DNA of 64,000 nucleotides, taken from assembly GCA_934089255.1 (NCBI GenBank), contig CAKOJI010000001.1, positions 14,572 to 78,571 of the forward strand, written 5' to 3'. A model generated the notes under the pieces. The model worked only from the letters and a program-made list of their open reading frames with translations. It was not told where the DNA came from and made no database searches. Every line of letters starts with the position of its first letter. The stretch's first letter is position 1. Below are positions 13,185 to 60,470 of this stretch, piece after piece. Position numbers and translations under genes: made by a program. Source of the DNA: an uncultured Bacilli bacterium (GTDB lineage Bacteria; Bacillota_I; Bacilli_A; RF39; UBA660).

Positions 13185-13187
13185 TTA

Positions 13188-13210: not shown

Positions 13211-13231
13211 ATATAAAGAAAGAGGGATAAT

Positions 13232-13675: not shown

Positions 13676-13693
13676 AATTATTATAGGGTTAGT

Positions 13694-13978: not shown

Positions 13979-13992
13979 ATGTTCACTTTTAT

Positions 13993-14105
13993 TAATTTAT
14001 AAAATAAATTAATAGACTTGCTATCATACTACCCACCATAGCAATTAACATAACCCATACTAGTATTTTAGCAGCAATATTTTTATTCTTTTTATTTTTA
14101 GCCAT
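13993..14105 (-). CDS. small hydrophobic protein (37 aa) with strong RBS
   Basis: Reverse strand MAKNKKNKNIAAKILVWVMLIAMVGSMIASLLIYFIN. GAGGTGA RBS 5 nt upstream. Basic N-terminus plus one TM helix. Not in the ORF track (<60 aa). Confidence 0.45.
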
Positions 14106-14184
14106 TATTTCACCTCAACATATTAATTATACTAAATAATGAATAATAAATAAAGTATTTTAATAATATTAAATAGGTGAAATT

Positions 14185-14778
14185 ATGAAATATATTAAGG
14201 GTAGTTATATGAATCATAGTAAAGTATATAATATAATTTTTATAGGTATATCTCTAAGTATTACTCTAGGTTTAGTATTAGCATTATCTATAGATAAAAA
14301 TTTATCTAATAATATTTATAGTTATTTTATAGATCATATTAATAATTATAATTTAAATAAATTAAGTAATATATTATATCCAATAATAATATATTTTATT
14401 TTATTTATCATATCATTAACTATAATTGGCTCTTTTATGCCATTTTTAACGCTTTTTATAGAAAATATAAGTATAGGGTTAATATTAGGAATAAGTCTTA
14501 GAAATAATGGTTTAAATGGCTTATTATTTAGTATAATATATTTTACTATAACTAAATTATTATATATACTTTTATTAATATATTTAACTATTAATATATA
14601 TAAGTTTATAAAGAAAATAATTAATTTAATTAAAACAAAAGAAACAGATAATATATATAATTTATATTCAAAAATAATATATAAAACTTTATTTTGTATA
14701 GGACTAATAACTATATATAATATTATTAATATATTTATAGCACCTAAACTAATTAGATTCTTTATTTTTCTTATTTAA
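14185..14778 (+). CDS. polytopic membrane protein (possibly SpoIIM-like)
   Basis: 197 aa, ~5 hydrophobic segments. Size and topology are reminiscent of SpoIIM, but no diagnostic motif. Confidence 0.45.
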   Translation: MKYIKGSYMNHSKVYNIIFIGISLSITLGLVLALSIDKNLSNNIYSYFIDHINNYNLNKLSNILYPIIIYFILFIISLTIIGSFMPFLTLFIENISIGLILGISLRNNGLNGLLFSIIYFTITKLLYILLLIYLTINIYKFIKKIINLIKTKETDNIYNLYSKIIYKTLFCIGLITIYNIINIFIAPKLIRFFIFLI

Positions 14779-30099: not shown

Positions 30100-31299
30100 C
30101 TATAAATTTCTTATTTCATTTCTTAATTTTATATTCTTATTTTCAGCACTTACTCTTAATGTCATAAACATTAATATAATAAGATTAAATGCAAAACTAC
30201 CACCACTACTTAAGAATGGAAGTGGAACTCCAGTAAGTGGAATTATTGCAAGTACTCCTAATAAATTAACAAGTAAATGTGCTAGTATTAAAGAAAACGT
30301 ACCATATGCAATTAAAGAGCCTACCAGTGTTTCAGAATTTCTAGCTATTTTTAAAATAAGATATAACATTATTAAGAATCCAATTAATATTATTGATGCT
30401 GCTACACTACCTAATTCTTCTACTACAATAGGAAATATAAAATCAGTATATGCCTCTGGTAAATATAAATATTTTTGTTTGCTATTACCAAGGCCAACCC
30501 CAAATAGTCCACCGTTATTTATTGCAATAAAACCATTACATACTTGATATCCAGTTTTCTCACTATACCTTGTACAAGGATTAGTATATGTTAATCTACT
30601 TAATTGTTCTTCATTTAAAATATTAGTATTTTTAAGTATTTCTTCTCCAAAAAAGAACATACAAGCTCCAATAACTGCAATACTACCAGCAACTATTTTT
30701 AATTTAGTATAATTTTTATCTTTTAAAGGTAAACTTAAAAATATTAAAAAGCACATTATTGCAAGTATCATAGCAGTTCCTAAATCAGGTTGAGCCGCTA
30801 TTAAAAATATACATATAACTGCATAAATAAATGGAATTAAAAATCTATAACCATTAAACACTTTTCTTGGATTATTAAACGAAAATGCTATATAAAGTAT
30901 AGTCATTGTTTTAACAAATTCACTAGGCTGTATTTGTATCGGTCCAATTTGTAACCAACTTGTTGCACCATTAATATGTTCTCCAAATGTAATAGTTAGT
31001 ATTAATAAACCAATAGAAATATATGCTAATAACTTAGATGTTTTCTTTATAACTTTTATCAAATTATAAGGCATAAATAGTATAACAAATCCCACTATAT
31101 ATGCTCCTATTACAAAAACTAATTGACGTATAAAAAAGTATGATTCACTCTGACCATATTGTAAAACAGCAGTCATACTAGAAGCACTAAAAACCATAAC
31201 AAGTCCTAAAACTGTATATACGATTAACAATAAAAATAAAAATTTATCCATATTTTTAAATTTACTTTTCATACCTTCACCATAACTTAATAATATCAT
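30100..31299 (-). CDS. FtsW/RodA/SpoVE family peptidoglycan glycosyltransferase
   Basis: SEDS family profile (…PDLGTAM…, C-terminal LPFLSSGGS). Exact start uncertain. Confidence 0.8.
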   Translation of the reverse strand: MILLSYGEGMKSKFKNMDKFLFLLLIVYTVLGLVMVFSASSMTAVLQYGQSESYFFIRQLVFVIGAYIVGFVILFMPYNLIKVIKKTSKLLAYISIGLLILTITFGEHINGATSWLQIGPIQIQPSEFVKTMTILYIAFSFNNPRKVFNGYRFLIPFIYAVICIFLIAAQPDLGTAMILAIMCFLIFLSLPLKDKNYTKLKIVAGSIAVIGACMFFFGEEILKNTNILNEEQLSRLTYTNPCTRYSEKTGYQVCNGFIAINNGGLFGVGLGNSKQKYLYLPEAYTDFIFPIVVEELGSVAASIILIGFLIMLYLILKIARNSETLVGSLIAYGTFSLILAHLLVNLLGVLAIIPLTGVPLPFLSSGGSFAFNLIILMFMTLRVSAENKNIKLRNEIRNL

Positions 31300-31349: not shown

Positions 31350-33503
31350 TTATTTTATAGTGTAAGGATTTGTTTTTGTTCCATTTCCACTAGAAATTTG
31401 TATTCCTGATTTTAAATTTATTGTAGGTCTAAAAGTAGCTTCAGATTGAACAGAATATCCCAAAGATACATCAAAATTACCTTCATCCCCATATGTAAAT
31501 ACATAATCGTTCCAAGCAATATCAAGATAAACATTAGGAGAAATAGACCACCAAATTAATTTATTATTTTTCGCATAATTATTCAGCAAATAATGAGTGT
31601 AATTAGGTGCATCAGTAGTGCCTGCAAAAGACATTTCATCTGCTGTTAATGTTCCTACATATATTTCAGTATTATCATTATATTTATTTATTTTTGTTCC
31701 TGTACAGATTAGTGACGGCTTCTTATTTGTATAAATTCGTGTATTTGTTGCATAACAATAATCAGTATTCTCATTATAAAAACTACAAGAAGCGCCATTG
31801 TCATCAAAACATAAATTATTTGTTTTTAAATAATTGCTTACTGATTTACCAGTTCCTACTTTTGTTCCTAACATGGTTTGGAAATTTTTTAATGAATCAA
31901 AAAGTCCAACAAATCCATCTTCCTTTCCACCTGTATTATTTAAAAAGTCAAGAGATTTACAATCACTAGCTCCTTCATAACCATATACAATAGTATTTCC
32001 ATCACTCCAGTTACCAGTGTATGAAGAACTATTACATTCTGCACTTCTATCTTCTAATATTAACTTTGTAGAACCATCACCTTCAATTCTTACAATTTTC
32101 CAACACATTCCTGCAAAATTTACATAATTATCTTTAACGTCGCCTCTATAATAATAACTTGTTCCATTATCGTCTGGAGTTATACTTAAGGTACTCTCTC
32201 TAGATTCTGTTTTTAATGAACTACTACTTATTGTTGAATATTTTATAGTAGTTGTTATATCAGAAACATTAGTTGATATTTTATATATAAAATTTTGATT
32301 TTGAGTATCTGATAAAGTTGGTTTATCATAACTCCGTACTGCATATTTTCCTACTAAATTACTAACCATTGATGTTGTATATTTACTAGTTGCAACTATT
32401 GGATTTACCAAAGTAAATTTGCCAGTATTTTCATCAACTGTATAATCATCTGCATATGAAATATAATAATTGGTTGCACTACTCCATGATGAAGTGAATG
32501 ATGTTGGATCAGTTCCTTTTAAAACTTTTGAGGAAGATTCTTCAGCAGGTTTAGTTTTAGGTGTTTTTAAAAACTCTGTTCCATTTGTTTTATTTTTTGC
32601 ATTAGTTAATATATTATAAGCAAGTGTTCCTTCTTCAAATGGCATATAATCTTTTACATCACCTATATCAGTTGTTAATGTACTTGATATATTTGTTATA
32701 TTTATACTTATTGTTTGTGTATCACTTGTTACTGTTATCACATCTCCATTTACACTAGATGTAGAACCTTTATTGATTGTTATTTGTTTACTTCCTTTTA
32801 TTGTTCCTTTAGAATCTTTTACATATAAAGTATGAACTCCTGGTTCTACTGCTGGTATAAAATATTTGTTATCTCTTATTTGACTTGTTTTTGGATTACT
32901 TTGCATTTCTACATAGTCTCCGCTTGTTGCATTTGTAACATTACCAGTTATATCAACTATATCTGCTAAGTTATATATTTGTACTTTTGCAGATATGGTT
33001 TTATTCATATCTTCACTTTGATCTATATTCATTTCTTTATAGACTACTTTTAATTCATAACTTTGTGTTTCATTTACATCTATATTATTTGTTACAAGCA
33101 TTCCATTTTGTGTTGGAAATGATGTTTCAGTTTTACCATTACAAGTCTTTCCACTCACACTACTTGTACAAGTTAAAGTATATACCATATCACTTGTTCT
33201 ACTTAGTGTATTTACTAATTCTTCTAAATATACTGCATAGTTGTTTACAGTTGCATTTCCTTCATTTTTAACTGTAAACGTTTTAGTATCTATTGTTGTA
33301 CCAGGCTGTATTTTTTCTGCAGTTATATCCCCGTTTCCATCTCCGTATGTTAATTTTAAATCTGCTGTTGTAACACTTATAGATTTAGTATTTGTGTTAC
33401 CTTGTATTCTAGTTAAAAAGTATGCATATGTTAATCCTACAAGTATTAGTAACACTATAAATATTCCTGTTACACTTATTATAATCTTTTGTTTTCTATT
33501 CAT
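31350..33503 (-). CDS. large secreted protein: SipW-cognate-type signal, TasA/camelysin-like N-domain, shared C-terminal module (paralog P1)
   Basis: MNRKQKIIISVTGIFIVLLILVGLTYAYF resembles the SipW-cognate class signal (GGGT[FW]A[AF]F pattern). Following segment LKLTYGDGNGDITAEKIQPGTTIDTKTFTVKNEGNATVNNYAV is TasA-like. C-terminus YYYRGDVKDNYVNFAGMCWKIVRIEGDG...GNGTKTNPYTIK. GGAAGGTGAG RBS. Confidence 0.7.
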   Translation of the reverse strand: MNRKQKIIISVTGIFIVLLILVGLTYAYFLTRIQGNTNTKSISVTTADLKLTYGDGNGDITAEKIQPGTTIDTKTFTVKNEGNATVNNYAVYLEELVNTLSRTSDMVYTLTCTSSVSGKTCNGKTETSFPTQNGMLVTNNIDVNETQSYELKVVYKEMNIDQSEDMNKTISAKVQIYNLADIVDITGNVTNATSGDYVEMQSNPKTSQIRDNKYFIPAVEPGVHTLYVKDSKGTIKGSKQITINKGSTSSVNGDVITVTSDTQTISINITNISSTLTTDIGDVKDYMPFEEGTLAYNILTNAKNKTNGTEFLKTPKTKPAEESSSKVLKGTDPTSFTSSWSSATNYYISYADDYTVDENTGKFTLVNPIVATSKYTTSMVSNLVGKYAVRSYDKPTLSDTQNQNFIYKISTNVSDITTTIKYSTISSSSLKTESRESTLSITPDDNGTSYYYRGDVKDNYVNFAGMCWKIVRIEGDGSTKLILEDRSAECNSSSYTGNWSDGNTIVYGYEGASDCKSLDFLNNTGGKEDGFVGLFDSLKNFQTMLGTKVGTGKSVSNYLKTNNLCFDDNGASCSFYNENTDYCYATNTRIYTNKKPSLICTGTKINKYNDNTEIYVGTLTADEMSFAGTTDAPNYTHYLLNNYAKNNKLIWWSISPNVYLDIAWNDYVFTYGDEGNFDVSLGYSVQSEATFRPTINLKSGIQISSGNGTKTNPYTIK

Positions 33504-33700: not shown

Positions 33701-35089
33701 TTATTCTATAACGTAAGGATCTTCTTTAGTACCTAACCCTGTAACTGTAACATTATTTTTTATATTTATTACAGGTCTAACATTTAATTCGTTTTCTACA
33801 TCACTTGCTTCTATACCCGTCTTACTATTAAATCCTACTACTTTAGCACAATTATTATCAAAACTATATGGTGTCATAGTCCACCAATTAGTACCATTAT
33901 TTAAATAAGTTTCTGTTTTATTTGAAGTAGCATAATACAATTCTTCAGCACTTAATAATCCAATATTAAGTTCATATTTAGAAAAATCTAAATCATTACA
34001 AATTAATATTTTATCATTAGAAGTGTATTTGTATAATGTTTCATTTTTACCATACCCTAAATAAGTTTCTATAATACCTTTATTACCACAATAACTATTT
34101 TTTACAATACTATTATAATTAATAAGTTCTGTACTATAAAAATTATCTAACGTATTCTTTATAACACTATTATTAACATTTTTATGTGTTAATTCATAAC
34201 TACTACTATTTACATCCCCATACGTATAACCAACATAAGCATTATCATTATTTAATGAATTAAATTTACTTAATCCAATAGTATCATCTAATATTAAACG
34301 TACAGTATCATTACCATTAATTCTAACTATTCTCCATAACTTATCAGCTATCAAAACATAATTATTATTAACGTTTCCCTTATAATAATAAGTTACTCCA
34401 TAATTATCTTCTATTTTATATAAATTAGATTCAATATTACTATCAATATCTAATTCAGGATTAATTGGTAATTCTACTATATTTCTTGATTTTAATATAG
34501 TTTCAATAGTAGGTAAAATATTTGTTTTATTATAATTTATTTCATTAATATATTTATTTATAATTTTATATTGTAAAGATTCTTTATTATTTTCATATAA
34601 TTCATTACTATATTCTATATCATATTTATTAACACTATTTATATTATTTATTTTTAAATAGTTATCTATATCATAATTTAATGTAGTATAATTACTATCT
34701 AATTTAAAATCAACTACTATATCTTTATCACTTAAATTACTTACTTTTAAATATATATCTTTTTCTTCTGATTCATTTAAAGAACCATATATATTGTTAT
34801 TAGTAGTATTAACTACTGATACAGAAAAATTATCATTAGATGTAGCAATTAAGCCATAATTAATACTAACTTTACTTGTATTTTTTATTTTTTCTTTAAT
34901 AACGTATTCTTTATTAGCTTCCAAATTTAAACTAGTAATACTTAAATCAGTAGTTATAGTAGGTACTGTAGACGTTACTACATCTTTTTCTTCAGTTTGG
35001 ACAAATAAACTATAACTTAAATTTAATACATAACAACCTAATATCATAACAATTGCACTTAGAAAATATATTTTTTTAGTCTTGTTCAT
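33701..35089 (-). CDS. secreted protein with SipW-cognate-like signal and the shared C-terminal module (P3)
   Basis: MNKTKKIYFLSAIVMILGCYVLNLSYSLF..., then YYYKGNVNNNYVLIADKLWRIVRINGND...GLGTKEDPYVIE at the C-terminus. AGGAG RBS. Confidence 0.65.
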   Translation of the reverse strand: MNKTKKIYFLSAIVMILGCYVLNLSYSLFVQTEEKDVVTSTVPTITTDLSITSLNLEANKEYVIKEKIKNTSKVSINYGLIATSNDNFSVSVVNTTNNNIYGSLNESEEKDIYLKVSNLSDKDIVVDFKLDSNYTTLNYDIDNYLKINNINSVNKYDIEYSNELYENNKESLQYKIINKYINEINYNKTNILPTIETILKSRNIVELPINPELDIDSNIESNLYKIEDNYGVTYYYKGNVNNNYVLIADKLWRIVRINGNDTVRLILDDTIGLSKFNSLNNDNAYVGYTYGDVNSSSYELTHKNVNNSVIKNTLDNFYSTELINYNSIVKNSYCGNKGIIETYLGYGKNETLYKYTSNDKILICNDLDFSKYELNIGLLSAEELYYATSNKTETYLNNGTNWWTMTPYSFDNNCAKVVGFNSKTGIEASDVENELNVRPVINIKNNVTVTGLGTKEDPYVIE

Positions 35090-40965: not shown

Positions 40966-41559
40966 TTATTCATATTCATTATTTAATTTAGGTATTTCAA
41001 TTCGAGGTGTTAAAAATAATTTTATTATATTTATTATTATATTAGTAACTATCCATACTATAAAAACCATACTAGATAATTCAAATATACTTAATAATAA
41101 ATCCTGTTCATATATTTTTGTAATAGTACTTAAATCAACAGTAATATCTTTCATAGCAATAACATTTGTTATAAATAAGAATTCTATAAAAATAGCAACC
41201 CATATATTTATATTTTTTTGTACACCTTCATATTTTTTAATAGAATATATTTGAAAAAATATAGTAATTAATATCATAGTAAAATACTCTATTAAAGAAG
41301 GAAAATAAGCTAGTTTAACTAAATTAGTTATATAAGTATCAACTATATTAAGTAACGGTTTATAATATTCAAAAGTACCATATAAAAGTATTAATATAAT
41401 TGTTATAGCATATAACCTCTTAGTACTTTTACTATTATTACCATATATTAAATCTATTAATATTATTAAAACTAATAATAATATCATAAATATAAAAGAA
41501 TTATCTTTTATAAAACTATATATTAAATTAATTTTATTTAATATAGTAGTATCAACCAT
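40966..41559 (-). CDS. polytopic membrane protein, unknown function
   Basis: 197 aa, 5-6 TM segments. Confidence 0.45.
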   Translation of the reverse strand: MVDTTILNKINLIYSFIKDNSFIFMILLLVLIILIDLIYGNNSKSTKRLYAITIILILLYGTFEYYKPLLNIVDTYITNLVKLAYFPSLIEYFTMILITIFFQIYSIKKYEGVQKNINIWVAIFIEFLFITNVIAMKDITVDLSTITKIYEQDLLLSIFELSSMVFIVWIVTNIIINIIKLFLTPRIEIPKLNNEYE

Positions 41560-41573
41560 AATATCACCCCATT

Positions 41574-42197
41574 TTATTCTTTATTTATTAATACACCAAC
41601 ATAAACCGTTTGTGTTTCATTATTATTTTTTGTGCACGTAATTAACGTTACATTAGATTTATCTTTATATCTTTTTATTTCTACTTCTCCAGTTTTTGGT
41701 ACTTCATAGATATTCCCTATTTGATAAGTATATTTAATATTATTATATTCTATAATAACTACATCCCCAACAGATAAATTATGTAATTTATTAAAATATG
41801 AAACACTAGAATTACCAGAATGTGCTGCAAATATAACATTACCATTTTCTGTATCAGGATAATCTGATGCACTTAATATACTTATATTTTTATTTATAGT
41901 ATTATATGGACTATCTTTTTTAGTAAAACCTTTTTTTAAATTTATTTTAGGTATAGATAGATACCCAATATAAACACTCTCATTATTTTCATTAAAACTA
42001 TAACTAGTATCTGGTTTATCCCCTGAATTATTCTCATTTAATGATATATCATCATTACTAATTGGTTCATTATAATATAATTCATTCATATAGTCATATA
42101 CCATAATTTTCTTCTCTTTAAAATACTCAGAACCAAAAATTACTATTCCAACTATAAGAATTATAAAACTAAATATTATTTTTAGATTTCTTGACAT
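41574..42197 (-). CDS. sortase-fold transpeptidase-like protein (His and TLITC Cys present, canonical Arg not evident)
   Basis: N-terminal TM anchor; YIGYLSIPKINLKKGF beta-strand; FAAHSG His; VTLITC catalytic Cys motif. Overlaps upstream substrate gene by 29 nt. Confidence 0.6.
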   Translation of the reverse strand: MSRNLKIIFSFIILIVGIVIFGSEYFKEKKIMVYDYMNELYYNEPISNDDISLNENNSGDKPDTSYSFNENNESVYIGYLSIPKINLKKGFTKKDSPYNTINKNISILSASDYPDTENGNVIFAAHSGNSSVSYFNKLHNLSVGDVVIIEYNNIKYTYQIGNIYEVPKTGEVEIKRYKDKSNVTLITCTKNNNETQTVYVGVLINKE

Positions 42198-43848
42198 TTA
42201 ATATTACCAAATATAAACCAGTACTTATTACTATAGCTCCTACAATATATTTTAAAGTTGCATTTAAACTAGTTATAGGACAATCAATAACATTACTTAA
42301 CCACTCTACAGTAGTTGTAGTATTAACTTCATTAGTTATTTCTATATCTTCATCATCTACATAATATGTATTATTTTCTTCATCATATTTTATATCATTA
42401 TTATTATCATCAATAATAGTATCTTGATAATTCTTTTTAGATAAACTTATACTATTTGCAAACACATAATCATCTTCATATTTTACTAATAAAGAGCCAT
42501 TATTAGTTACTTTAAAATATAATTTATCTATTTTATTTTTAGTATCAATAATATAATAAATTCCTTCTGTTAATTCAATTTCATAATTAGTATTATTACT
42601 TCTATAACTATTAACTAAAACTCCAGAATTAGAATAAATTTTTATAATATTAGCACTATCATCTAAATCATTATATATGTTAATTTTTCTTTTTTTATCT
42701 TCTTCATTATTATTTATATTACTATTTTCTTTAACATCAACATATTGAATACTATTTGTATCTTTTACTTCAAATTTTGTCTTAGTTGGTAAATTATAAT
42801 TATTAGTATTAGTTTTATTTACTAAAGTATAAACTCCTTTACCTAATACATTTTTTAATTCTACATAATTATTTCTAGTAGTAAAAGTTTGTACTAAATT
42901 ATCACTATAACAAGTACTATTAGTACAGTCACCACTATATATATTGTATGTTAAACCACTTATAAAATTTTCATTATCATTTAGAATACTAATTCTAACA
43001 TTAGTACTACCAATTCCTTTTATATTAGCAGGGATACTTGCTTCCACGTTATTATAATTATTAGTATAGACTCTACCATATATTACACTATCATTACCAT
43101 AATTTGAATAACTATAAGTAGTATTATTATAAGCACTTCCGCTACTATAAATTTCAAAATCTTTTTCATTTATAGTAGTTAAACTTGAAACAGGTATTCT
43201 AACTTGGAATGATCCTTCTCCGTTACTACTTACTGTATTATTAATTATTGAACTACTTGTTGGAGCATTGTATAGACTAACACTTGGAGTATTTCTTAAA
43301 TTATTTGTTCTAACATTAATTACATTTGAATAATAATAGTTTCCATTTTTCGTAAATGTTACATCTTTATTTATGAAATCAATAGTACTATTATTTTTTC
43401 CATATATTTTAGCATCATTAAATAACTTATTTATAAAATAACAAAAAGTATCTGTAGTATTAGAAGAAATAGTTTCTTTTAAAGTACTACTTATATTATT
43501 AGTTCCCTTTAAATAATCTTGATACATAAGTATAGCAGCTTGTGCTATATAATAATTTTTGTAACTACTATTTGTTACATTACTATTATTGATTATATAA
43601 GTAAATCCTGGATCTGTTACTACTGCATTAGTTAATGTAGTGCTTGTATTAAAATATGTACCATAATTTAATACATAAACATTATAACCACTAGCTTGAT
43701 TATAATAAATAGGTAACCCACTTATATACTCATAACTATTACCTGTATTATAAACAGATATACTATTTGGATAACTTGCCGCATTTACTGAAGTTGCAAA
43801 ACATATTATAGATAATATGCTTAATAAAATTTTAGAAAATCTTTTCAT
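42169..43848 (-). CDS. secreted Asn/Tyr/Ser/Thr-rich surface protein with C-terminal TM + KKSK tail
   Basis: Sec signal ...ATSVNA|AS. C-terminus ...CPITSLNATLKYIVGAIVISTGLYLVILNVKKSKNNI has sorting-signal architecture but no LPXTG. AGAGGTG RBS before MKRFSKILL. Confidence 0.6.
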   Translation of the reverse strand: MKRFSKILLSILSIICFATSVNAASYPNSISVYNTGNSYEYISGLPIYYNQASGYNVYVLNYGTYFNTSTTLTNAVVTDPGFTYIINNSNVTNSSYKNYYIAQAAILMYQDYLKGTNNISSTLKETISSNTTDTFCYFINKLFNDAKIYGKNNSTIDFINKDVTFTKNGNYYYSNVINVRTNNLRNTPSVSLYNAPTSSSIINNTVSSNGEGSFQVRIPVSSLTTINEKDFEIYSSGSAYNNTTYSYSNYGNDSVIYGRVYTNNYNNVEASIPANIKGIGSTNVRISILNDNENFISGLTYNIYSGDCTNSTCYSDNLVQTFTTRNNYVELKNVLGKGVYTLVNKTNTNNYNLPTKTKFEVKDTNSIQYVDVKENSNINNNEEDKKRKINIYNDLDDSANIIKIYSNSGVLVNSYRSNNTNYEIELTEGIYYIIDTKNKIDKLYFKVTNNGSLLVKYEDDYVFANSISLSKKNYQDTIIDDNNNDIKYDEENNTYYVDDEDIEITNEVNTTTTVEWLSNVIDCPITSLNATLKYIVGAIVISTGLYLVILNVKKSKNNI

Positions 43849-43877
43849 ATCACACCTCTTTTTTCTATTTGGCACCT

Positions 43878-47263: not shown

Positions 47264-48481
47264 TTAAGAACAATTATTGATTAACTCATAAGGCTCATCT
47301 TTAGTACCTTCACTATTTGTAAAATTATAACAATTTTTCAATTTAATAATTGGCACTATATATAACTTAACATCTTTACAAACGCTATATTCAAACCTTC
47401 TATCTACATTATGTGGATTCACAAATAATAAATCATCATTACCTTCTTCAGCAGATGCAATGTATTGAAATAATGCGTAAGTTCCCACTGATAAAATATA
47501 TTCATCATCATTTTTTGTATATTTACTAAGTAAATCTATTATATAATTTCCATCATTACTATTAGCATTTTTAAGTGTTTCTACATCAATTAGTCCAATA
47601 TTCGTTTCATAAGTTTGATATCTAGTATAAGATGATTTATCTGGCATATATGTTTCAAATACTTTTTGTCTAAATTTTTCAGGATAATTTGAATACTCAT
47701 TTATATATGTATGCCAATTATTATTATAATCAAAATAGGTATCACCAGCTTTGAAAACATCTATACCAGTAACATATTTTATATTTAATTTACTATCATT
47801 TATACTCATATTTGTACATTCTCCTAAAACACTCCAATCATTACTTGTACAACTTTTACTTACAAGTTCTTTGGGAGTTAATTTTATTACACTTTCTTTA
47901 TCATTTGCTATTAAAAAGACATTTCCATTAGTAATTTCTACTATACGCCATAATCTTTCATTTAATTTCACAAAATTTTTAGGATTTTCTCCTTTTGCTA
48001 CATAGTCTTCCTTATTTGTTATAGCATTATTAGAAGAAACGCCATTATCTCTAGGACATATATATATTACTTTGCTACCATCTAGTTCTTTTAAATCCCA
48101 TTTTTTAAACACTTCTATTCCTATAACATTATTTTCACAATCAAATTTTCCAGCTGTTGCTAATACTGCATTAGATAACATAAAGTAATTTTCTTTATAA
48201 TCTACTTTCATATCATCTTTTATTAACCCTTCATTTTTTAATGTTTCCAAAGTTACTAAAGCAGCTTTCGCATTTTTATTTAAATTAGTTGTGATTTCTT
48301 TATGATTTGAAACATAAACTTGTAATGCATTTTCTAACTTTTTTTCATTTGCTTTCAATATATTAATTTCTCTTGTTTTATTAGTTTTTAAAACTACAAC
48401 GGTTACGGAAACACCTATAATTACAATTAAACTAATACATATAATAATTTCAATTAATGTAAAACCTCTTTTATTCTTCAT
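47264..48481 (-). CDS. type IV prepilin-like protein with shared C-terminal module (P4, 405 aa)
   Basis: MKNKRG|FTLIEIIICISLI class III signal. Later ...LNERLWRIVEITNGNVFLIANDKE...EGTKDEPYELINNCS. Confidence 0.7.
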   Translation of the reverse strand: MKNKRGFTLIEIIICISLIVIIGVSVTVVVLKTNKTREINILKANEKKLENALQVYVSNHKEITTNLNKNAKAALVTLETLKNEGLIKDDMKVDYKENYFMLSNAVLATAGKFDCENNVIGIEVFKKWDLKELDGSKVIYICPRDNGVSSNNAITNKEDYVAKGENPKNFVKLNERLWRIVEITNGNVFLIANDKESVIKLTPKELVSKSCTSNDWSVLGECTNMSINDSKLNIKYVTGIDVFKAGDTYFDYNNNWHTYINEYSNYPEKFRQKVFETYMPDKSSYTRYQTYETNIGLIDVETLKNANSNDGNYIIDLLSKYTKNDDEYILSVGTYALFQYIASAEEGNDDLLFVNPHNVDRRFEYSVCKDVKLYIVPIIKLKNCYNFTNSEGTKDEPYELINNCS

Positions 48482-48488
48482 AGTATCC

Positions 48489-48674
48489 CTACTTACTTAT
48501 TTTATTATTTTTTTCTTCAAAATTTATTTCTTTATTTTCTATCTTTTCCTTAACATCAGTAAGTTCTTCTTTATCCATTTCATCTATTACTTCATCTTCT
48601 TTATGTTCTTTTGCTTTTTTTAAAAACAATTCTTTTTCTTCTTCACTTAATATACCATCTTTAAAATTTATCAT
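48489..48674 (-). CDS. acidic 61-aa protein (copy A)
   Basis: MINFKDGILSEEEKELFLKKAKEHKEDEVIDEMDKEELTDVKEKIENKEINFEEKNNKISK; AGAAGGAGAA RBS; 100% identical to 50354..50539. Confidence 0.55.
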   Translation of the reverse strand: MINFKDGILSEEEKELFLKKAKEHKEDEVIDEMDKEELTDVKEKIENKEINFEEKNNKISK

Positions 48675-48714
48675 ACCTATTCTCCTTCTAAAATAATTAT
48701 ACTATATTTATTAT

Positions 48715-48829
48715 TTATTTTCTAGGTATAGTATGTAAATATACTCTTTTTAATTCTTCATTGGACACATGAGTATATATACTAGTAGTAGATAAAGATA
48801 CATGACTTAAAAGTTCTTGAACACTTTTT
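48715..48829 (-). pseudogene. 3'-terminal remnant (38 codons) of tyrosine recombinase gene within a direct repeat
   Basis: Identical (1 mismatch) to the 3' end of the recombinase at 50580..50694; similarity ends abruptly at 48830. Confidence 0.7.
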
Positions 48830-48915: not shown

Positions 48916-50346
48916 TTATTCACTTATGATATATGGATCAGTTTTAGTTCCATTCCCACTTAGAACTTTTATATTATCATTAATAACATAGGCAACTCTA
49001 ACGTATGTATACTGAAGAGCACTATGAACACCATCTTCTCCTGGACTTTCTGCTATATCCACATCGAAAGTTAATTCATCTTCAATACTACCATAATCAA
49101 ATAAATTTAAATAATCAACTTCATATTTTATATGTTTGGGATTATATATACCAGATCTTAAATATTCTTGATATGTAAGTAGTCCAAAATCAGATGATAC
49201 TTTAGTTTCGCTATTGCATTTAAAATTTGTTAAATTATTTTTATTAATATTAGTGTCATAACTATCGCCACACCATTTATAATTTTTATTTATATATTTT
49301 GTTAACATATTTTGTATATTATCTTCATAATGAGTTTTAAGTGGTTTATAAACATATTCATATACAGGACTACTTAATGTTACAGTTTCTTGACAATATT
49401 CCCTACTACTAGTAGTTTCACATACTAAAACTTGTTCTGTACTGTCACTCCAACTTTCTATCTCCTTTGTATCATTGTTTGCTTTACAAGAACATCTCGT
49501 TGATTTATTAGGATAAAGATGAGTTATTGAATATTTAGAAGTATCAATTCTACCATAATTTGAATTTCCACTGTAACTAGTAAAAAAATATACAGAAGCA
49601 CCATTAGTAAGAACATTATTATTAGATAAAAGAATTTTTTCATCTTCAATAATCTTAATACCATCATTCTCAGTAGTTCTAACTATTCTAAATAACTTAT
49701 CTAATCCTTCAAATTTAATATAGTTATTATCAACTTTTCCCTTAAAATAATAAATATCTTCTAAATTTTCATCATCACTAATATTTTTTCCATGTGATAA
49801 ACACAAACTATTAGTTTCTAAACTATTTTCACAGTTAGTATTATATCCTTGTTTTAACATCTTATTAATTAAAAGTGATTCATCACTACTACCACTTTTA
49901 TTAGAATTATAAGGACATAAATAAACTACATTATCTTTTTTTGTTTCCCAATTAACTGTATACTCAAGCACATTAGCTCCACATTCTTTATCTGTAGAAC
50001 CTTTTATAGAATTAGTAATCCAAACTAAATAAGATTTATCATCTTCTAATTTATATTCTTTTTCTAAAGTTTTATATAATTTTTCATCTACATAACCTTT
50101 ATTTACTAATTCACTTACATTAATTCTAGCACCTTTACCACCATTATTTATTCCATACTCATATGTATTTCCTTGATCATCTTTTTCAGTAGCAATATAA
50201 ACATTTGCTGCTTCTAATATTTTCTTAGTTATATTACTATAATCTTTATTTTTAGTAAAAATTACTATACTTATGGTAGATATAATAGCAATTAAACTAA
50301 TACATATAATAATTTCAATTAATGTAAAACCTCTTTTATTCTTCAT
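48916..50346 (-). CDS. type IV prepilin-like protein with shared C-terminal module (P5, 476 aa)
   Basis: MKNKRG|FTLIEIIICISLI; C-terminus YYFKGKVDNNYIKFEGLDKLFRIVRTTENDG...GNGTKTDPYIISE. Confidence 0.7.
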   Translation of the reverse strand: MKNKRGFTLIEIIICISLIAIISTISIVIFTKNKDYSNITKKILEAANVYIATEKDDQGNTYEYGINNGGKGARINVSELVNKGYVDEKLYKTLEKEYKLEDDKSYLVWITNSIKGSTDKECGANVLEYTVNWETKKDNVVYLCPYNSNKSGSSDESLLINKMLKQGYNTNCENSLETNSLCLSHGKNISDDENLEDIYYFKGKVDNNYIKFEGLDKLFRIVRTTENDGIKIIEDEKILLSNNNVLTNGASVYFFTSYSGNSNYGRIDTSKYSITHLYPNKSTRCSCKANNDTKEIESWSDSTEQVLVCETTSSREYCQETVTLSSPVYEYVYKPLKTHYEDNIQNMLTKYINKNYKWCGDSYDTNINKNNLTNFKCNSETKVSSDFGLLTYQEYLRSGIYNPKHIKYEVDYLNLFDYGSIEDELTFDVDIAESPGEDGVHSALQYTYVRVAYVINDNIKVLSGNGTKTDPYIISE

Positions 50347-50694
50347 AGTATCCCTACTTACTTATTTTATTATTTTTTTCTTCAAAATTTATTTCTTTAT
50401 TTTCTATCTTTTCCTTAACATCAGTAAGTTCTTCTTTATCCATTTCATCTATTACTTCATCTTCTTTATGTTCTTTTGCTTTTTTTAAAAACAATTCTTT
50501 TTCTTCTTCACTTAATATACCATCTTTAAAATTTATCATACCTATTCTCCTTCTAAAATAATTATACTATATTTATTATTTATTTTCTAGGTATAGTATG
50601 TAAATATACTCTTTTTAATTCTTCATTGGACACATGAGTATATATACTAGTAGTAGATAAAGATACATGACCTAAAAGTTCTTGAACACTTTTT
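50289..50694. repeat. 406-bp direct repeat copy B
   Basis: See copy A. Confidence 0.85.
50354..50539 (-). CDS. acidic 61-aa protein (copy B)
   Basis: Identical to 48489..48674. Confidence 0.55.
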   Translation of the reverse strand: MINFKDGILSEEEKELFLKKAKEHKEDEVIDEMDKEELTDVKEKIENKEINFEEKNNKISK

Positions 50695-51449
50695 AAATCA
50701 CATCCCTCATTTAATAACATAGTAGCAAAAGAATGTCTAAACGTATGTGGTGTAACTAATAAATCACTACTAGACTTTAATAATACCTTATCAATAATAT
50801 CTCTAACTCCTCTTGTAGTTAATTTATTACCTAAATGATTCACTAATAAATATTCACACTTTTTATTTTTTAAAATAGAATCTCTTACTCTTAAATAATT
50901 ATTCAAACTATCTATAGCATAACTTCCTAAATATACTATACGTTCTTTATTACCTTTACCAAGTACTTTAATTTCTCGATTTGTAATATCAATATTACAT
51001 AATTTTATATTAACAAGTTCATTAACTCTACACCCAGTACAAAGTAATAATTCAAATATACACCTATTCCTCATACCTAAATTACTATTAGTATCTATAC
51101 TATCTAATATCTTAACATATTCATCATATTTAAAATAATTTGGTAACTTTTTTTCTTTACTCATACTATTAACTAATTTAAATGGATTATTTTTAACAGA
51201 TTTATTTTTTATTAAATAATCATAATACATTCTTAAACTACTTAAACTTCTATTTATACTAGATGGTTTATGTGTTTGTTTCAAATAAGATATATAACTT
51301 AAAACATCTTTATATTGAATACTATTATAACTCTTATTAACATTTTTTAAATATTCTTCAAACTTATTAATATCTATCTCATAATTTAATACAGTATTAT
51401 CACTATATTTTTTAATACTAGTTAAATAATTTAAAAATTCTTCTAACAT
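50580..51449 (-). CDS. tyrosine site-specific recombinase (Xer/integrase family), directly upstream of pilin cassettes
   Basis: [39 protein letters not shown] catalytic C-terminus; 289 aa. Confidence 0.8.
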   Translation of the reverse strand: MLEEFLNYLTSIKKYSDNTVLNYEIDINKFEEYLKNVNKSYNSIQYKDVLSYISYLKQTHKPSSINRSLSSLRMYYDYLIKNKSVKNNPFKLVNSMSKEKKLPNYFKYDEYVKILDSIDTNSNLGMRNRCIFELLLCTGCRVNELVNIKLCNIDITNREIKVLGKGNKERIVYLGSYAIDSLNNYLRVRDSILKNKKCEYLLVNHLGNKLTTRGVRDIIDKVLLKSSSDLLVTPHTFRHSFATMLLNEGCDLKSVQELLGHVSLSTTSIYTHVSNEELKRVYLHTIPRK

Positions 51450-55689: not shown

Positions 55690-56331
55690 TTATTTATTTT
55701 TATTTATTATATATATTTTATTATTTTTATAAAATGAATAAAAAACATCATTTAAAAGTATATTTTTACTATGTAATTTATTAATTAACCATTCTTTATC
55801 TTTTTTTAAATATTTTAATGTATCCTCTTGTATAACTGTATCTATTATAAGAGCTAATGGAAAATCACTTTTAGTTTTTAAAATATTATATTTAAATACG
55901 CTAAGTTTACCATTAGGTTCTAATATTGCATACTCTACATCACTTAAAGATTTTATACCATTTTGTCTTAATTCTAATAATATATCATCTAATGAATATC
56001 TATTTTTTATTAATTCTTTAAATTTTATTTTACCATTTACAATTAATAAACTAGGTTTACCAGACATTAATTCATTAAATTTTCTAGATTTAAGAGATAA
56101 CTTAGCAAGTACAATTTCTAATACTACTAAAGCAATGATAGGTACTATAGTAAGTATTATAGAATCATCCATATTTTCAATACTAATTGCAATTAATTCA
56201 GCCATTAATATTGATACAATTAAATCTATTATTTCTAATTGACTTATTTCTCTTTTACCCATTATTCTATATGCTAACACTACTAAAAAATAAAAGAATA
56301 TAGTTCTAAATAACGCATTAAGTATATCCAT
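55690..56331 (-). CDS. DUF421 (YetF/YdfS-like) membrane protein
   Basis: N-terminus MDILNALFRTIFFYFLVVLAYRIMGKREISQLEIIDLIVSILMAE resembles DUF421. Confidence 0.6.
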   Translation of the reverse strand: MDILNALFRTIFFYFLVVLAYRIMGKREISQLEIIDLIVSILMAELIAISIENMDDSIILTIVPIIALVVLEIVLAKLSLKSRKFNELMSGKPSLLIVNGKIKFKELIKNRYSLDDILLELRQNGIKSLSDVEYAILEPNGKLSVFKYNILKTKSDFPLALIIDTVIQEDTLKYLKKDKEWLINKLHSKNILLNDVFYSFYKNNKIYIINKNK

Positions 56332-56406: not shown

Positions 56407-58569
56407 CTATGATATTACGTAAGGATTTGAAATAGTTCCGTTTCCACCAGTTATTTGAACTCTAGACAAGAGAGTTACTGCGGAACGAGAATAGACATCG
56501 TCATAATTGACTGAACTGCTGCCAAGAAATCCAACTTCAGAAAGTTGATAAGCGTCACCGATACCACTATTAGCAATATAGTAAAAAGAAGAAAGCCCCC
56601 ACCACGTTAAGGGATTATTCCTTGTATAACTATTCATTAAATAATGAGTAGAATTAAGTGAACCAGTAGCACCTGCAAACGACATTTCATCTGCTGTTAG
56701 TGTTCCTACATACATATCTGAATCATCTTTATATTTATTTAATTTTGTTCCTTTACACACTAGTGATGGTTTTTTATCTACTTCTATTCTTTTATAAGCA
56801 CCATAATATTCATCAGTATACCAGCCATTTGTTGCTTCATTTTCTTCATATACAATATTATCATTATCATCGAACCCATAACTTTCAGTACTAGCCACGC
56901 TATGATCAAAACACCAGTTGTCTACTTTCAAATAATCACTTAATGATTTATTAGTTGTTAATTTAGAACTTAATGTCGTTTGAAAACTCTTTAATGAGTC
57001 TGCTAATCCTCCAGAATAATTTAAAAAGTCTGCTTTACCATTTGTATCATAACCAAATGCAACTTTTGTTCCATCACTCCAATTTCCAGTATATGACGAA
57101 CTATTACATTCTGTATTTCTATCTTCTAATATAAGTTTTGTAGAACCGTCTCCCTCAATTCTTACAATTCTCCAACACATTCCTGCAAAGTTTACATAGT
57201 TATCTTCTACTCCACCTCTATAATAATAACTTGTTCCATAATCATCTGCAGTTACGCTTAATTCTTTTTCTGTAGATTTTTGATCTGCAATTATGTTTGC
57301 ATATTTTATGTTAGAAGTTATATCAGATACATTAGTTGATATTTTATATATATAATTTTGATTTTGAGTATTTGTTATTGTTGGTTTATTAGTACTCCAT
57401 ACTGCATATTTTCCTGCTAAACTACTTGCCAGTGATGTTGTATATTTACTAGTTGCAACTGTTGGATTTACTAAAGTAAATTTACCAGTTGTTTCGTTTA
57501 CAGTATAATCATCTGCATATGAAATATAATAATTTGTTGCGTTCCATAATGTTGAGGTAAATGATGTCGGAGCAGTTCCTTTTAAATATAAAATTGAACT
57601 TGTTTCTTCCGCAGGATTTGTTTTAGGGGTTTTTAAAAACTCTGTTCCATTTGTTTTATTAATTGCATTAGTTAATATATTATAAGCAAGTGTCTCTTCT
57701 TCAAATGGCATATAATCTTTTACATCACCTATATCAGTTGTTAACGTACTTGAAATACTCGTTATATTTATGCTTATTGTTTGTGAATCACTTGTTACTG
57801 TTATCACATCTCCATTTACACTAGATGTAGAACCTTTATTTATTGTTATTTGTTTACTTCCTTTTACAGTGCCTTTAGAATCTTTTACATATAGTGTATG
57901 AACTCCTGGTTCTACTGCTGGTATAAAATATTTGTTATCTCTTATTTGACTTGTTTTTGGCGTACTTTGCATTTCTACATAATCTCCTGTTGCTGCATTT
58001 GTTACTGTTCCTGTTATATCAACTATGTCTGATAAGTTATATATTTGTACTTTTGCTCCAATAGTCTTATTCATGTCTTCACTTTGATCTATATTCATTT
58101 CTTTATAGACTACTTTTAATTCATAACTTTGTGTTTCGTTTACATCTATATTATTTGTTACTAGCATACCATTTTGTGTTGGAAATGATGTTTCAGTTTT
58201 ACCATTACAAGTTTTTCCACTTACACTACTTGTACAAGTTAAAGTATATACCATATCACTTGTACGGCTTAATGTATTTACTAACTCTTCTAAGTACACT
58301 GCATAATTATTTACAGTTGCATTTCCTTCATTTTTAACTGTAAACGTTTTAGTGTCTATTGTAGTACCTGGTTGTATCTTTTCTGCAGTAATATCACCAT
58401 TACCGTCTCCGTATGTTAGTTTAAGATCTGCTGTTGTAACACTTATAGACTTAGTATTAGTATTTCCTTGTATTCTTGTTAGAAAGTATGCATAAGTTAA
58501 TCCTACAAGTATTAGTAACACTATAAATATTCCTGTTACACTTACTATAATTTTCTGTTTACGATTCAT
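56407..58569 (-). CDS. large secreted protein, paralog P2 of 31350..33503
   Basis: Signal and TasA-like N-domain are ~95% identical to P1 over the first ~300 aa (of ~480 aa of colinear similarity) and ~80% over the remainder up to ~480. C-terminal ~230 aa diverge but keep the WRIVRIEGDG...GNGTISNPYVIS module. Confidence 0.7.
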   Translation of the reverse strand: MNRKQKIIVSVTGIFIVLLILVGLTYAYFLTRIQGNTNTKSISVTTADLKLTYGDGNGDITAEKIQPGTTIDTKTFTVKNEGNATVNNYAVYLEELVNTLSRTSDMVYTLTCTSSVSGKTCNGKTETSFPTQNGMLVTNNIDVNETQSYELKVVYKEMNIDQSEDMNKTIGAKVQIYNLSDIVDITGTVTNAATGDYVEMQSTPKTSQIRDNKYFIPAVEPGVHTLYVKDSKGTVKGSKQITINKGSTSSVNGDVITVTSDSQTISINITSISSTLTTDIGDVKDYMPFEEETLAYNILTNAINKTNGTEFLKTPKTNPAEETSSILYLKGTAPTSFTSTLWNATNYYISYADDYTVNETTGKFTLVNPTVATSKYTTSLASSLAGKYAVWSTNKPTITNTQNQNYIYKISTNVSDITSNIKYANIIADQKSTEKELSVTADDYGTSYYYRGGVEDNYVNFAGMCWRIVRIEGDGSTKLILEDRNTECNSSSYTGNWSDGTKVAFGYDTNGKADFLNYSGGLADSLKSFQTTLSSKLTTNKSLSDYLKVDNWCFDHSVASTESYGFDDNDNIVYEENEATNGWYTDEYYGAYKRIEVDKKPSLVCKGTKLNKYKDDSDMYVGTLTADEMSFAGATGSLNSTHYLMNSYTRNNPLTWWGLSSFYYIANSGIGDAYQLSEVGFLGSSSVNYDDVYSRSAVTLLSRVQITGGNGTISNPYVIS

Positions 58570-58709: not shown

Positions 58710-60470
58710 TTAAAGGCTTGTTTTATTTTTAATAGCCTTATTAATTAATTCCATAAAATCATATATAGAAAGAGTAACTGTTTCTCTGTTACCAAATAAT
58801 CTATAACTAACAGTATTATTATCTAATTCATTATCACCAAGTATTAACGTAACTGGTATCTTTTTAGTTTGACTTTCTCTCATTTTATAAGATAATTTTT
58901 CATCTCTACTATCTAGTTCAACTCTTAAATTATTTTCTCTTAATAAATCATAAATTTTATTAGCATATTCTAAATGATATTCATTATTTACTGGAATTAT
59001 ATTAATTTGTGTTGGCGCTAACCATAATGGGAAATTACCTTTAGTTTCTTCAATAATAAATGCTGTAAATCTATCAAATGTTCCAAATATTGCCCTATGT
59101 AGTACTACAGGAATTTGTTTTTCACCTTTATTGTCTATATATGATAATTCAAATCTTCTAGGTAAAAGGAAATCTAATTGACAAGTAGAAAGAGTTACTT
59201 CTGGACCAACAGCAGGTTTTACTTCAACATCTAATTTTGGTCCATAAAATGCAGCTTCTCCTATTGCCTCAAAATATTCTACTCCTAATTCATTTAAAAC
59301 ATTTCTTAATTTATCTTCTGCTTCATTCCACATATCATCATCATCAAAATATTTTTCTTTATCATTTTTATCTCTTAATGATAATCTAAATTTATAATCT
59401 TTTATACCAAAGTCTTTATAAACATCTAATATTAAACTAACAACTTTTTTAAATTCTTCTCCTATTTGATCAGGTCTTACAAAAAGGTGAGCATCATTTT
59501 GACACATACATCTAACTCTTTCAAGACCTTTTACTGCACCACTAGCTTCATATCTAAAATCAGTAGCAAATTCTCCAATTCTTATTGGTAAATCTCTATA
59601 AGAATGTAATTTGTTTTTATAAACCAACATATGATGAGGACAATTCATTGGACGAAGTACAAACTCTTCATCATCTACTTTCATCATAGGAAACATATTC
59701 TCTTTATAATGATCCCAATGTCCACTAGTTTTATATAAATCAACAGTACCTACACAAGGAGTATATACATGATTATATCCTAATTTTTGTTCTTTCTCAT
59801 ATATATAATTTTCTAATTGTTTTCTAATAATAGCTCCATTAGGTAACCATAAAGGCATACCAGCACCAACTAAGTCATCAGTCATAAATATTTCCATATC
59901 TTTACCGATTTTTCTATGATCTCTTAGTTTTGCTTCTTCTAATTCATTTAAATAATCATTTAACTCTTCTTCAGTTTTAAAACATACCCCATATATTCTT
60001 TGTAATACTTTATTTTTAGAGTCACCTTTCCAGTATGCACCACTATGTTTTAATAATTTAAAATGTTTAAGTTCTTTAACAGTATCTACATGAGGTCCAC
60101 GACAAAGATCTGTAAAATCACCTTGAGTATAGCAACTAATTATAGTATTATCTTCATCCATATTATTAATTAAATCAATTTTATATGGATCATCCTTAAA
60201 CATTTCTAAAGCTTCATCTTTACTTATTTCATGTCTAACTATTCTTTTACCATCTTTACTAATTTTTTTCATTTCACGTTCTATGATAGGTAAATCTTCA
60301 GTTTTAATTACTTCATCACCTAAATCAATATCATAATAAAAACCTTCATTAATAACAGGTCCTACCCAAAATTTAGCATTTGGATATAGGTGTTTAACAG
60401 CTTGTGCCATTAAATGAGCACAAGAGTGATTTAATACATTTAATTCTTTATTTTCTTTAATATTTATCAT
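58710..60470 (-). CDS. thrS: threonine--tRNA ligase lacking the N-terminal TGS domain
   Basis: 586 aa, starts within the editing domain (…HSCAHLMAQAV…); class II motifs and C-terminal anticodon-binding domain present. Confidence 0.85.
   Translation of the reverse strand: MINIKENKELNVLNHSCAHLMAQAVKHLYPNAKFWVGPVINEGFYYDIDLGDEVIKTEDLPIIEREMKKISKDGKRIVRHEISKDEALEMFKDDPYKIDLINNMDEDNTIISCYTQGDFTDLCRGPHVDTVKELKHFKLLKHSGAYWKGDSKNKVLQRIYGVCFKTEEELNDYLNELEEAKLRDHRKIGKDMEIFMTDDLVGAGMPLWLPNGAIIRKQLENYIYEKEQKLGYNHVYTPCVGTVDLYKTSGHWDHYKENMFPMMKVDDEEFVLRPMNCPHHMLVYKNKLHSYRDLPIRIGEFATDFRYEASGAVKGLERVRCMCQNDAHLFVRPDQIGEEFKKVVSLILDVYKDFGIKDYKFRLSLRDKNDKEKYFDDDDMWNEAEDKLRNVLNELGVEYFEAIGEAAFYGPKLDVEVKPAVGPEVTLSTCQLDFLLPRRFELSYIDNKGEKQIPVVLHRAIFGTFDRFTAFIIEETKGNFPLWLAPTQINIIPVNNEYHLEYANKIYDLLRENNLRVELDSRDEKLSYKMRESQTKKIPVTLILGDNELDNNTVSYRLFGNRETVTLSIYDFMELINKAIKNKTSL

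Follow-up and report, generated by a model that had tools for sequence, protein, structure and literature searches.

The 64,000 nucleotides analyzed here, a stretch of contig CAKOJI010000001.1 from an uncultured Bacilli bacterium (hereafter the window), carry two long genes, A and B, whose protein products begin almost alike and end very differently, and the locus raises the question of what holds one part of such a pair constant while the other part changes. A first-pass annotation of this DNA had seen in them a mosaic paralog pair, in which gene conversion between the two copies would homogenize a TasA-like 5′ part and diversifying pressure would act on the distal module. The pair itself is confirmed as it was described, with both open reading frames (ORFs) in place and co-oriented:

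31350..33503, minus strand: copy A, an ORF of 717 amino acids (aa), identical to database protein P0004
56407..58569, minus strand: copy B, an ORF of 720 aa, identical to database protein P0127

The interpretation put on it is partly supported, the TasA-like stalk and the fast distal module having evidence on their side, and conversion between A and B and the suggested inversion not. In our reading, A and B are probably two members of a large recombining family of surface proteins, in which constraint and a family-wide exchange of patches act on a constant handle, and the heads are variable.

Homology between A and B runs from the ATG to the stop. No alignment was found between them in the 300 nucleotides (nt) 5′ of the ATG, nor 3′ of the stop; their ribosome-binding sites (RBSs) differ, as had been noted, and their 3′ hairpins, each AT-rich and with a T-run, are unrelated. 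In a repeat search the two genes come out as four direct-repeat blocks, collinear and spaced by about 25.06 kb. Within the gene (long ORFs of the window called with translation table 11; window GC content 23.3%), a protein-guided codon alignment gave the following identities by codon range, together with synonymous (dS) and non-synonymous (dN) divergence from Nei-Gojobori counts, of which dS is rough in a genome of 23% GC:

Codons 1-170: 91.6% nt and 99.4% aa identity; dS 0.49, dN 0.010 (39 synonymous against 4 non-synonymous differences), dN/dS 0.02
Codons 171-300: dS 0.24, dN 0.042
Codons 1-300 taken together: 91.9% nt, 96.3% aa; dS 0.37
Codons 301-450: 82% nt, 73% aa; dS 0.36, dN 0.17
Codons 451-500, a conserved island (YYYRG...WRIVRIEGDGS): 86.7% nt, 90% aa; dS 0.73, dN 0.056
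Codons 501 to the end (about 220 aa): 66.7% nt, 49% aa; dS 0.68, dN 0.39
Alignment columns 651-715, a loop and the most divergent A/B stretch: 57% nt, 31% aa; dS 0.76, dN 0.60, dN/dS about 0.8

Divergence along the alignment is clearly non-uniform. The first ~900 nt are indeed more than 90% identical and the last ~230 aa strongly diverged, as the first-pass annotation had it; the fall in identity toward the 3′ end holds at codons 301-450, but the conserved island that follows had been overlooked, and the 5′ part is near-identical in protein and not in nucleotides, where 56.5 synonymous differences have accumulated over the first 300 codons. Synonymous divergence is comparatively high just where the protein is most conserved, so that the gradient is mainly driven by dN: it chiefly reflects amino-acid constraint along the protein, with very strong purifying selection on the 5′ part or handle and drift at its synonymous sites. 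The proposed diversification of the distal module also stands, since dN rises from 0.01 to 0.60 along the gene and the sequence entropy of the family peaks at B aa 661-690.

The first explanation to be weighed is that of ongoing reciprocal gene conversion between A and B, which would homogenize the 5′ 900-1400 nt while selection diversifies the 3′ end. Nucleotide identity does drop along the gene, from some 92% to some 57%, which speaks for it, and dS is somewhat lower in codons 171-450 (0.24-0.36) than from codon 451 to the end (about 0.7), which implies a more recent common ancestor for the 5′ two-thirds than for the heads. Nonetheless, the dS of 0.49 in the 170 most protein-conserved codons is about ten times the between-strain divergence (~0.04), and over the first 870 nt A and B share no identical run of more than 65 nt, a length within chance (P=0.20 under random placement of the same differences); homogenization of A and B is for these reasons unsupported for the recent past. 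In codons 1-60, moreover, B is almost identical to its ortholog in a related assembly, and A differs at 20 sites, nearly all of them synonymous. The identity of codons at conserved residues was tested against random draws from the codon usage of the window, the genome being very AT-rich: residues 1-120 share 85 identical codons where ~70 are expected (a modest excess), residues 171-300 share 104 where 71 are expected, and at conserved A/B residues 125 of 164 codons are identical where codons drawn at random would give 102. Neither copy has recently converted the other; the explanation is largely refuted for the recent past, and we hold it improbable overall.

The conserved segments of family members do carry a signature of recombination, which is family-wide. 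Strain divergence between the window and L001, an independent assembly, amounts to a dS of 0.03-0.06 in the genes for ThrRS, Obg, YetF and DinB. B and its L001 ortholog (allele B′) differ at only dS 0.02 (codons 301-450) and 0.06 (501-720) in the variable parts, and at dS 0.27 (codons 1-170), 0.165 (171-300) and 0.38 (451-500) in the conserved segments; the dS of the B alleles is 4-9 times that of the background and flanks, in conserved segments only. Within codons 61-120, 22 sites differ between the two B alleles against 16 between A and B, and where the B alleles differ, A agrees with each about equally often and in an interleaved manner, which indicates donors other than A and tells once more against conversion within the pair.

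For a wider comparison, the 290-codon handle was taken from seven sequences in six assemblies, namely A, its counterpart in assembly L030 (A_L030), B, B′ and three further paralogs:

P0006, in L033: paralog used for comparison; same species as the window (EF-Ts dS 0)
P0009, in L034: paralog used for comparison; L034 is not proven to be of the same species as the window
P0002, in L037: A/B-type paralog from a different species, at a genome-wide dS of 0.78-0.96 to the window

These seven stalks fall into three allele groups (A with A_L030, B with B′, and the three other paralogs), and all pairs except the near-identical A and A_L030 lie at dS 0.23-0.40 and dN 0.02-0.07, cross-species pairs included. 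A test of the pairwise homoplasy index (PHI) type on 84 informative sites gave a local incompatibility of 0.357 against 0.462 +/- 0.013 in permuted data (p<0.0005), and the minimum number of recombination events (Rm) in the set is at least 27. Three pairings have identical tracts longer than expected: A and P0006, of 132-149 nt (P<=0.0002), and, both at P=0.004, B and P0009, of 89 nt, and B′ and P0002, of 90 nt. The significant tracts point to other paralogs and not to the partner in the pair. A in L030 differs from A in the window by 7 nt, all of them in a 60-nt patch (codons 106-125) with ~5 kb of flanking genes identical to the window, and the variants at codons 123-125 (‘VN’) are those of P0006-type paralogs. 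In the same vein, a handle that is >90% identical recurs in at least 25 cluster representatives, with at least three architectures downstream of it and with amino-acid variants that are shared in a patchwork, and the head of B is closer to those of P0009 (70%) and P0005 (71%) than to that of A (55%), the stalks of A and B being 96% identical.

A single old duplication followed by graded purifying selection only, with zero recombination, would do well for A and B taken by themselves, as a dN gradient over a fairly flat dS is what differential constraint predicts and the pair contains no conversion tract of its own. It fails on the family: B alleles that reach 4-9 times the background dS in conserved segments only, the PHI-like result and the Rm, the significantly long identical tracts with other paralogs, and a B head nearer to P0009 and P0005 than to A, which amounts to module shuffling, all run counter to it. 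We consider that it has little chance of being right.

The family to which these handles belong is large. A search with the handle matched 1,868 cluster representatives (clusters at 50% identity) at E<=1e-3 and 356 at E<=1e-30, and the handle stands at the protein N-terminus in almost all of the 150 best matches. The relatives are metagenome-assembled genomes (MAGs) of uncultured human-gut Bacilli, in each of which the recovered loci include from several copies up to ten or more; the species of the window is not among the GTDB representative genomes, in which the best relatives are 49-65% identical. Contigs L022, L023 and L026-L029 end within the first 30-77 codons of a family member, so the leader acts as an assembly-breaking repeat and the copy numbers in MAGs are underestimates. 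The locus of P0006 is polymorphic for presence or absence within the species: in L033 (7835-9975) this 629-aa protein is encoded between EF-Ts and a pyrimidine-nucleoside phosphorylase gene, and the window has at that place only a 70-nt spacer (3948-4017).

Such a multi-copy family invites the suspicion that the mosaics are artefacts of short-read assembly (chimeric consensus or mixing of strains), and part of the evidence can be read in that way: many contigs of relatives break off in the conserved leader, some of the patches lie next to exact runs of 80-150 nt that paralogs share, and A_L030 departs from A in one short patch between identical flanks. The copies themselves are nevertheless found again, between the same neighbors, in other assemblies:

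30100..31299 and 33701..35089: neighbors of copy A, FtsW/RodA and a 462-aa DUF6273 protein, respectively
55690..56331 and 58710..60470: neighbors of copy B, YetF/DUF421 and ThrRS, respectively

P0127, that is, B, is recorded in NCBI and ENA on a contig of 93,468 bp, and B lies between ThrRS and YetF in the independent assemblies L032, L001 and L031, which represent two cohorts; it is identical in the window and L032, and allele B′ differs by 2 nt between L001 and L031, which come from different cohorts. The locus of A (ProRS, the 462-aa gene, A, FtsW) recurs in the independent assembly L030, and its protein cluster, to which P0123 also belongs, has 7 members, 4 of them full-length (717 aa). 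At ~90% identity most k-mers are specific to one paralog, and the recombination signal spans all seven sequences and six assemblies. A and B are genuine copies and not assembly chimeras, as exact database proteins and recurring loci attest, and we regard assembly artefact as a very improbable source of the mosaics.

Some points do weigh against family-wide exchange as we read it, beside the roughness of dS already mentioned. All the sequences come from short-read metagenome assemblies, in which paralogs share exact runs of 80-150 nt and some of the apparent conversion patches could be cross-overs, and the patch of A_L030, flanked by exact runs of 80 and 132 nt, could be one of these. The low dS of handles between species could, besides, reflect interspecies transfer or selection at synonymous sites. 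The case in question is that of P0002, encoded at 10001-12076 of L037/L038 in a species at dS ~0.8-0.96 and dN 0.09-0.18 to the window: its 290-codon handle is at dS 0.28-0.40 and dN 0.03-0.07 to A, B, their alleles, P0006 and P0009, far closer to those copies than the housekeeping genes are. This comparison of sequences suggests module transfer, shared old polymorphism or synonymous constraint.

What the constant part might be was approached through an AlphaFold2 (AF2) model of B, built from a 52-sequence alignment (predicted local distance difference test, pLDDT, 88), which lays the protein out as a helix (3-33), a disordered linker, a first sandwich (49-178), a second sandwich (183-285), an alpha/beta domain (294-432) and a C-terminal domain (435-720). 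Up to the head, the features are:

58471..58569, minus strand: B leader, aa 1-33 (MNRKQKIIVS...GLTYAYFLTRI), predicted to be a helix, either as signal peptide or as membrane anchor
33405..33503, minus strand: the equivalent leader of A
58030..58437, minus strand: B aa 45-180, constant stalk core, a TasA/camelysin-like beta-sandwich; 99% aa identity to A, dS ~0.49
57715..58023, minus strand: B aa 183-285, second beta-sandwich, fn3_3/CarboxypepD_reg-like
57274..57702, minus strand: B aa 290-432, variable alpha/beta middle domain; 73% aa identity to A, dN/dS ~0.47

The leader bears a TasA-type ‘..TYAYF’ motif, with a low-confidence linker at 30-44 in the AF2 model, and the sequence MNRKQKIIVS..GLTYAYFLTRIxGNTNxKSISVTTAxL is kept in every paralog of every relative examined, its substitutions being specific to the genome. 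The second sandwich is missing from many shorter members of the family (aa 183-279 are absent in relatives). There is support for the first-pass annotation in calling the 5′ part TasA-like: the Peptidase_M73 profile (PF12389) matches 8 of the 52 aligned homologs (best E 1.3e-5), with precomputed matches also on P0111, P0113 and P0115, fn3_3 matches 11 of the 52, and Foldseek with the full-length model finds the TasA fibre 8aur at probability 0.99, with a TM-score of only 0.35 and amid matches that are mostly generic beta-sandwich structures. On the other side of the balance, A and B themselves have no Pfam or NCBIfam match at E<=1, which makes membership of the TasA family weak, and no sipW or tapA neighbor was found in the window or at annotated paralog loci. 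Peptidase_S24/S26 genes were also absent from the scanned window ORFs and from the surroundings of paralogs in L001 and L030-L038, elsewhere in the genome being possible, and sequence searches of the PDB with both domains and the family profile gave nothing useful.

The variable end of the protein is formed by the C-terminal domain or head:

56410..57267, minus strand: B head, aa 435-720, DUF6273-type (C-type-lectin-like)
31353..32195, minus strand: the equivalent head of A
33701..35089, minus strand: tandem neighbor of A on its upstream side, a 462-aa gene whose N-terminal half is unrelated and whose DUF6273 head, a distant relative of the family head, is 26% identical to that of A/B
47264..48481 and 48916..50346, minus strand: two type-IV-pilin-like (N_methyl) genes inside the 25-kb interval

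Modelled alone (AF2 pLDDT 87.6), the head has a single significant PDB match in Foldseek, the T. ramosa IgA peptidase structure 9qa6 (probability 0.99, E 4e-4), whose N-terminal domain (residues 31-322), possibly the part that aligned, was annotated as DUF6273 by its authors (PMC12402451), and its top BFVD matches are phage ‘DUF6273 domain-containing’ proteins (probability 1.00, E 3e-4). By profile the link is indirect: the family head aligns with that of 33701..35089 (hhalign probability 99.5%, E 3e-23), which in turn matches PF19789 (E 3.5e-5, 24.2 bits against a cut-off of 23.5), and 1 of the 52 family members has a direct PF19789 match. The head is thus assigned to DUF6273 indirectly by profile, and also by its predicted fold. 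The C-terminal parts of the two pilin-like genes are weakly related to the same head, so that the window holds five genes in which a DUF6273-type head sits on three different N-terminal modules.

Within the head, A and B diverge most in a loop that a diversity-generating retroelement (DGR) rewrites in sister paralogs of related genomes, and this loop corresponds to the variable region (VR) of those paralogs:

56479..56607, minus strand: B loop, aa 655-697 (WWGLSSFYY...VYSRS), VR equivalent; GC 0.41
31422..31553, minus strand: A loop, aa 651-694 (WWSISPNVY...ATFRP), VR equivalent; GC 0.33, 31% aa identity to the B loop

In phages, DUF6273 is a documented DGR target of the C-lectin-like type (PMC10743442, PMC11792537). 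In L007, from a species other than that of the window, the cassette (11676-14476) has an intact reverse transcriptase (RT) and bAvd, and the template repeat (TR, 12526-12647) and VR (11676-11797) are 122 nt long with 18 of 18 mismatches at TR adenines. In L034 (9590-12254; also in L035 and L036), a MutS-fragment gene, a TR, bAvd and RT follow P0009; the TR is rich in AAC codons, and where it departs from the 3′ end of the gene, the TR position is mostly an adenine. This second cassette has decayed, given the three in-frame stops and the deletion in its RT and two TR/VR indels; an alternative genetic code was considered for the stops and set aside, as three of them within ~10 codons plus a ~30-residue deletion relative to the L007 RT amount to decay. 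Both cassettes have a MutS_I fragment gene between target and TR, and the VR corresponds to B aa 655-697 and A aa 651-694. The B loop is the entropy maximum of the whole family (2.8 bits), and its GC stands out from that of the gene (0.30) and the window (0.23); across the family, loop GC is 0.59 and 0.56 in the true VRs, 0.54, 0.52 and 0.48 in other paralogs, and then that of B and of A, in genes of 0.25-0.33 GC overall.

A and B are not active DGR targets, as there is no RT, Avd or TR in the window (tblastn with the L034 bAvd and RT, best E 0.2) and the B loop is nearly invariant, with one codon changed among the window, L032, L001 and L031. The Pfam scans of window ORFs are likewise without RVT, and the A loop is identical in the window and L030. 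Their loops align to the TRs of L034 and L007 at the flanks only; given this, the empty window and the stable B loop, a DGR history for A and B is indirect. B as a current trans-target of a DGR elsewhere was rejected on the same kind of evidence, there being no TR match within the loop and no change of the loop among strains. A DGR in the past of A and B is a different matter, and plausible from the sequences. That the 3′ ends diverged instead through common point mutations and indels, with selection either relaxed or diversifying and with no DGR history, deserves serious weight, even if we lean away from it: beyond the missing components and the stability among strains, the differences between the A and B loops include indels and hit all positions, and a dN/dS of ~0.8 is not above 1. 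What speaks against it is that DGR-targeted sister paralogs in two species have their VR at exactly this loop, that B retains VR flanks and raised GC, and that P0002, an A/B-type paralog, is 72% identical to a TR over 96 nt.

It had also been proposed that the pair brackets a substrate for large inversions, deletions or duplications. Co-oriented repeats do allow deletion and duplication, and by that same orientation an inversion is ruled out. Gene order was compared with relatives and synteny is intact: L001 and L030, in the parts of the 25-kb interval that they cover, and likewise L031 have the order of the window, and in the covered parts nothing between the repeats was seen to be deleted, duplicated or inverted. 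A deletion would take with it proS, recD2, divIVA, sepF, ppdK, tRNA-Ala and dinB, of which proS, divIVA, sepF and tRNA-Ala are expected to be essential. The A/B repeats are old, nucleotide-diverged and stable, and not an active substrate of rearrangement.

Inside the same interval lies a repeat of another kind, of 400 nt and 99.2% identity (48416-48815 and 50281-50680), near-identical in nucleotides unlike the A/B pair. It spans the first ~66 nt of both pilin-like genes and the 233-nt upstream region of each, and takes in ~100 nt from the 3′ end of a tyrosine recombinase gene (50580..51449), a fragment that is duplicated at 48716-48815. L001 and L031 have one pilin gene here, so the second cassette was gained by the strain of the window. 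Elsewhere in the window, the last part of a 568-aa ORF without annotation (42169..43875) overlaps a sortase gene (41574..42197), after which comes a 197-aa ORF, likewise unannotated (40966..41559); the region 41574-43875 may be another surface-protein module.

Taking these lines together, A and B would belong, as dispersed copies that are expressed independently, to a large and rapidly evolving family of surface or secreted proteins from uncultured Bacilli of the human gut, each with a constant handle (leader and two sandwiches, aa 1 to ~290), a variable middle domain and a DUF6273 head. Short patches of the conserved segments would be exchanged among many paralogs by ectopic gene conversion, which we infer because long tracts are shared with other paralogs and the B alleles have diverged in conserved segments. 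Such an exchange would hold the handles, as a pool, to a divergence that is shallow and reticulate (dS ~0.3-0.4), with each locus retaining its own head, homology-dependent conversion being presumably restricted to the segments that all copies must keep. The handle may provide a common export or assembly route, by analogy either a TasA-like donor-strand fibre or a membrane-anchored stalk, and the heads may give each paralog a different ligand specificity. The divergence of the 3′ ends would be due to past DGR mutagenesis and/or diversifying selection rather than to current hypermutation: an old diversification, possibly driven by a retroelement, and then a drift toward the AT-richness of the genome.

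TasA polymerizes via donor-strand exchange (PMC9674648), and a requirement of the donor-strand type would explain the extreme conservation of the handle. A bolder proposal builds on this analogy and seems to us unlikely: the handle would be a donor-strand polymerization module whose protein sequence is kept the same in all paralogs, and even between species, so that different subunits co-assemble into a single fibre, with interchangeable lectin heads, one of them rewritten, now or formerly, by a chromosomal DGR, and with patchy conversion, perhaps also exchange between species, keeping the handles compatible. The tip adhesins of type V pili in gut Bacteroides are diversified by DGRs (bioRxiv 10.1101/2024.11.15.621889), and the co-assembling fibre, if true, would be their Gram-positive counterpart. 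Both are surface families of gut commensals that join a conserved assembly module to a DGR-diversifiable ligand-binding domain; the Bacteroides adhesins, however, belong to another phylum and are built on lipoprotein-processed type V pilins, as opposed to the TasA-like handle predicted here from genomes.

Other known systems resemble the pair in part. With TasA/CalY (camelysin, Peptidase_M73; biofilm fibres of Bacillus) it shares the leader motif, a first sandwich that matches 8aur, at a low TM-score, and a hidden Markov model hit in 8 of 52 members, but A and B are three times longer, with a second sandwich, a middle domain and a lectin-like head, have no such hit of their own and no sipW/tapA neighbor, and occur as many paralogs per genome. 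Bordetella phage Mtd is the classic DGR variable protein. With such proteins (C-type-lectin-like/DUF6273, among them tentaclins and Faecalibacterium prophage targets) the family has in common the head fold, the hypervariable loop at the C-terminal end and, in L007 and L034, sister paralogs with cognate TR, bAvd, RT and adenine-specific mismatches. A and B differ from them in having no TR, RT or Avd in the window and strain-stable loops that are not templated by known TRs, and in being chromosomal cellular genes with a TasA-like handle instead of phage tail proteins. Neisseria pilE/pilS, Borrelia vlsE and the variable lipoproteins of Mycoplasma are multigene surface families that evolve by segmental gene conversion; many paralogs, a conserved 5′ and a variable 3′ part and patchy, non-reciprocal exchange are common to them and the A/B family. 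In contrast to these, all copies of the A/B family examined are full-length, silent cassettes and a single expression site are missing, and exchange is found in the conserved and not in the variable segments. Cassette-type antigenic variation does not describe A and B, which are complete ORFs with their own starts, different RBSs and their own hairpin-plus-T-run ends. As to their expression signals, a promoter consensus scan around both genes was uninformative (fewer promoter-like sites than in shuffles), and a G+C-demanding terminator rule fails on the AT-rich hairpins visible 3′ of both stops.

The pair is therefore a variation on known themes and not a new kind of system, even though a TasA-like handle joined to a DGR-type DUF6273 head appears to be undescribed in the literature searched (searches for DGR together with TasA or camelysin found no paper). 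It shows that near-identical halves of paralogs can reflect selection at the protein level and patchy exchange throughout a family, and not homogenization within the pair, and it opens a view on a large family of surface proteins in gut Bacilli that is without annotation in the databases used. If the heads bind host or microbial glycans, this family would be a main determinant of gut attachment for these organisms.

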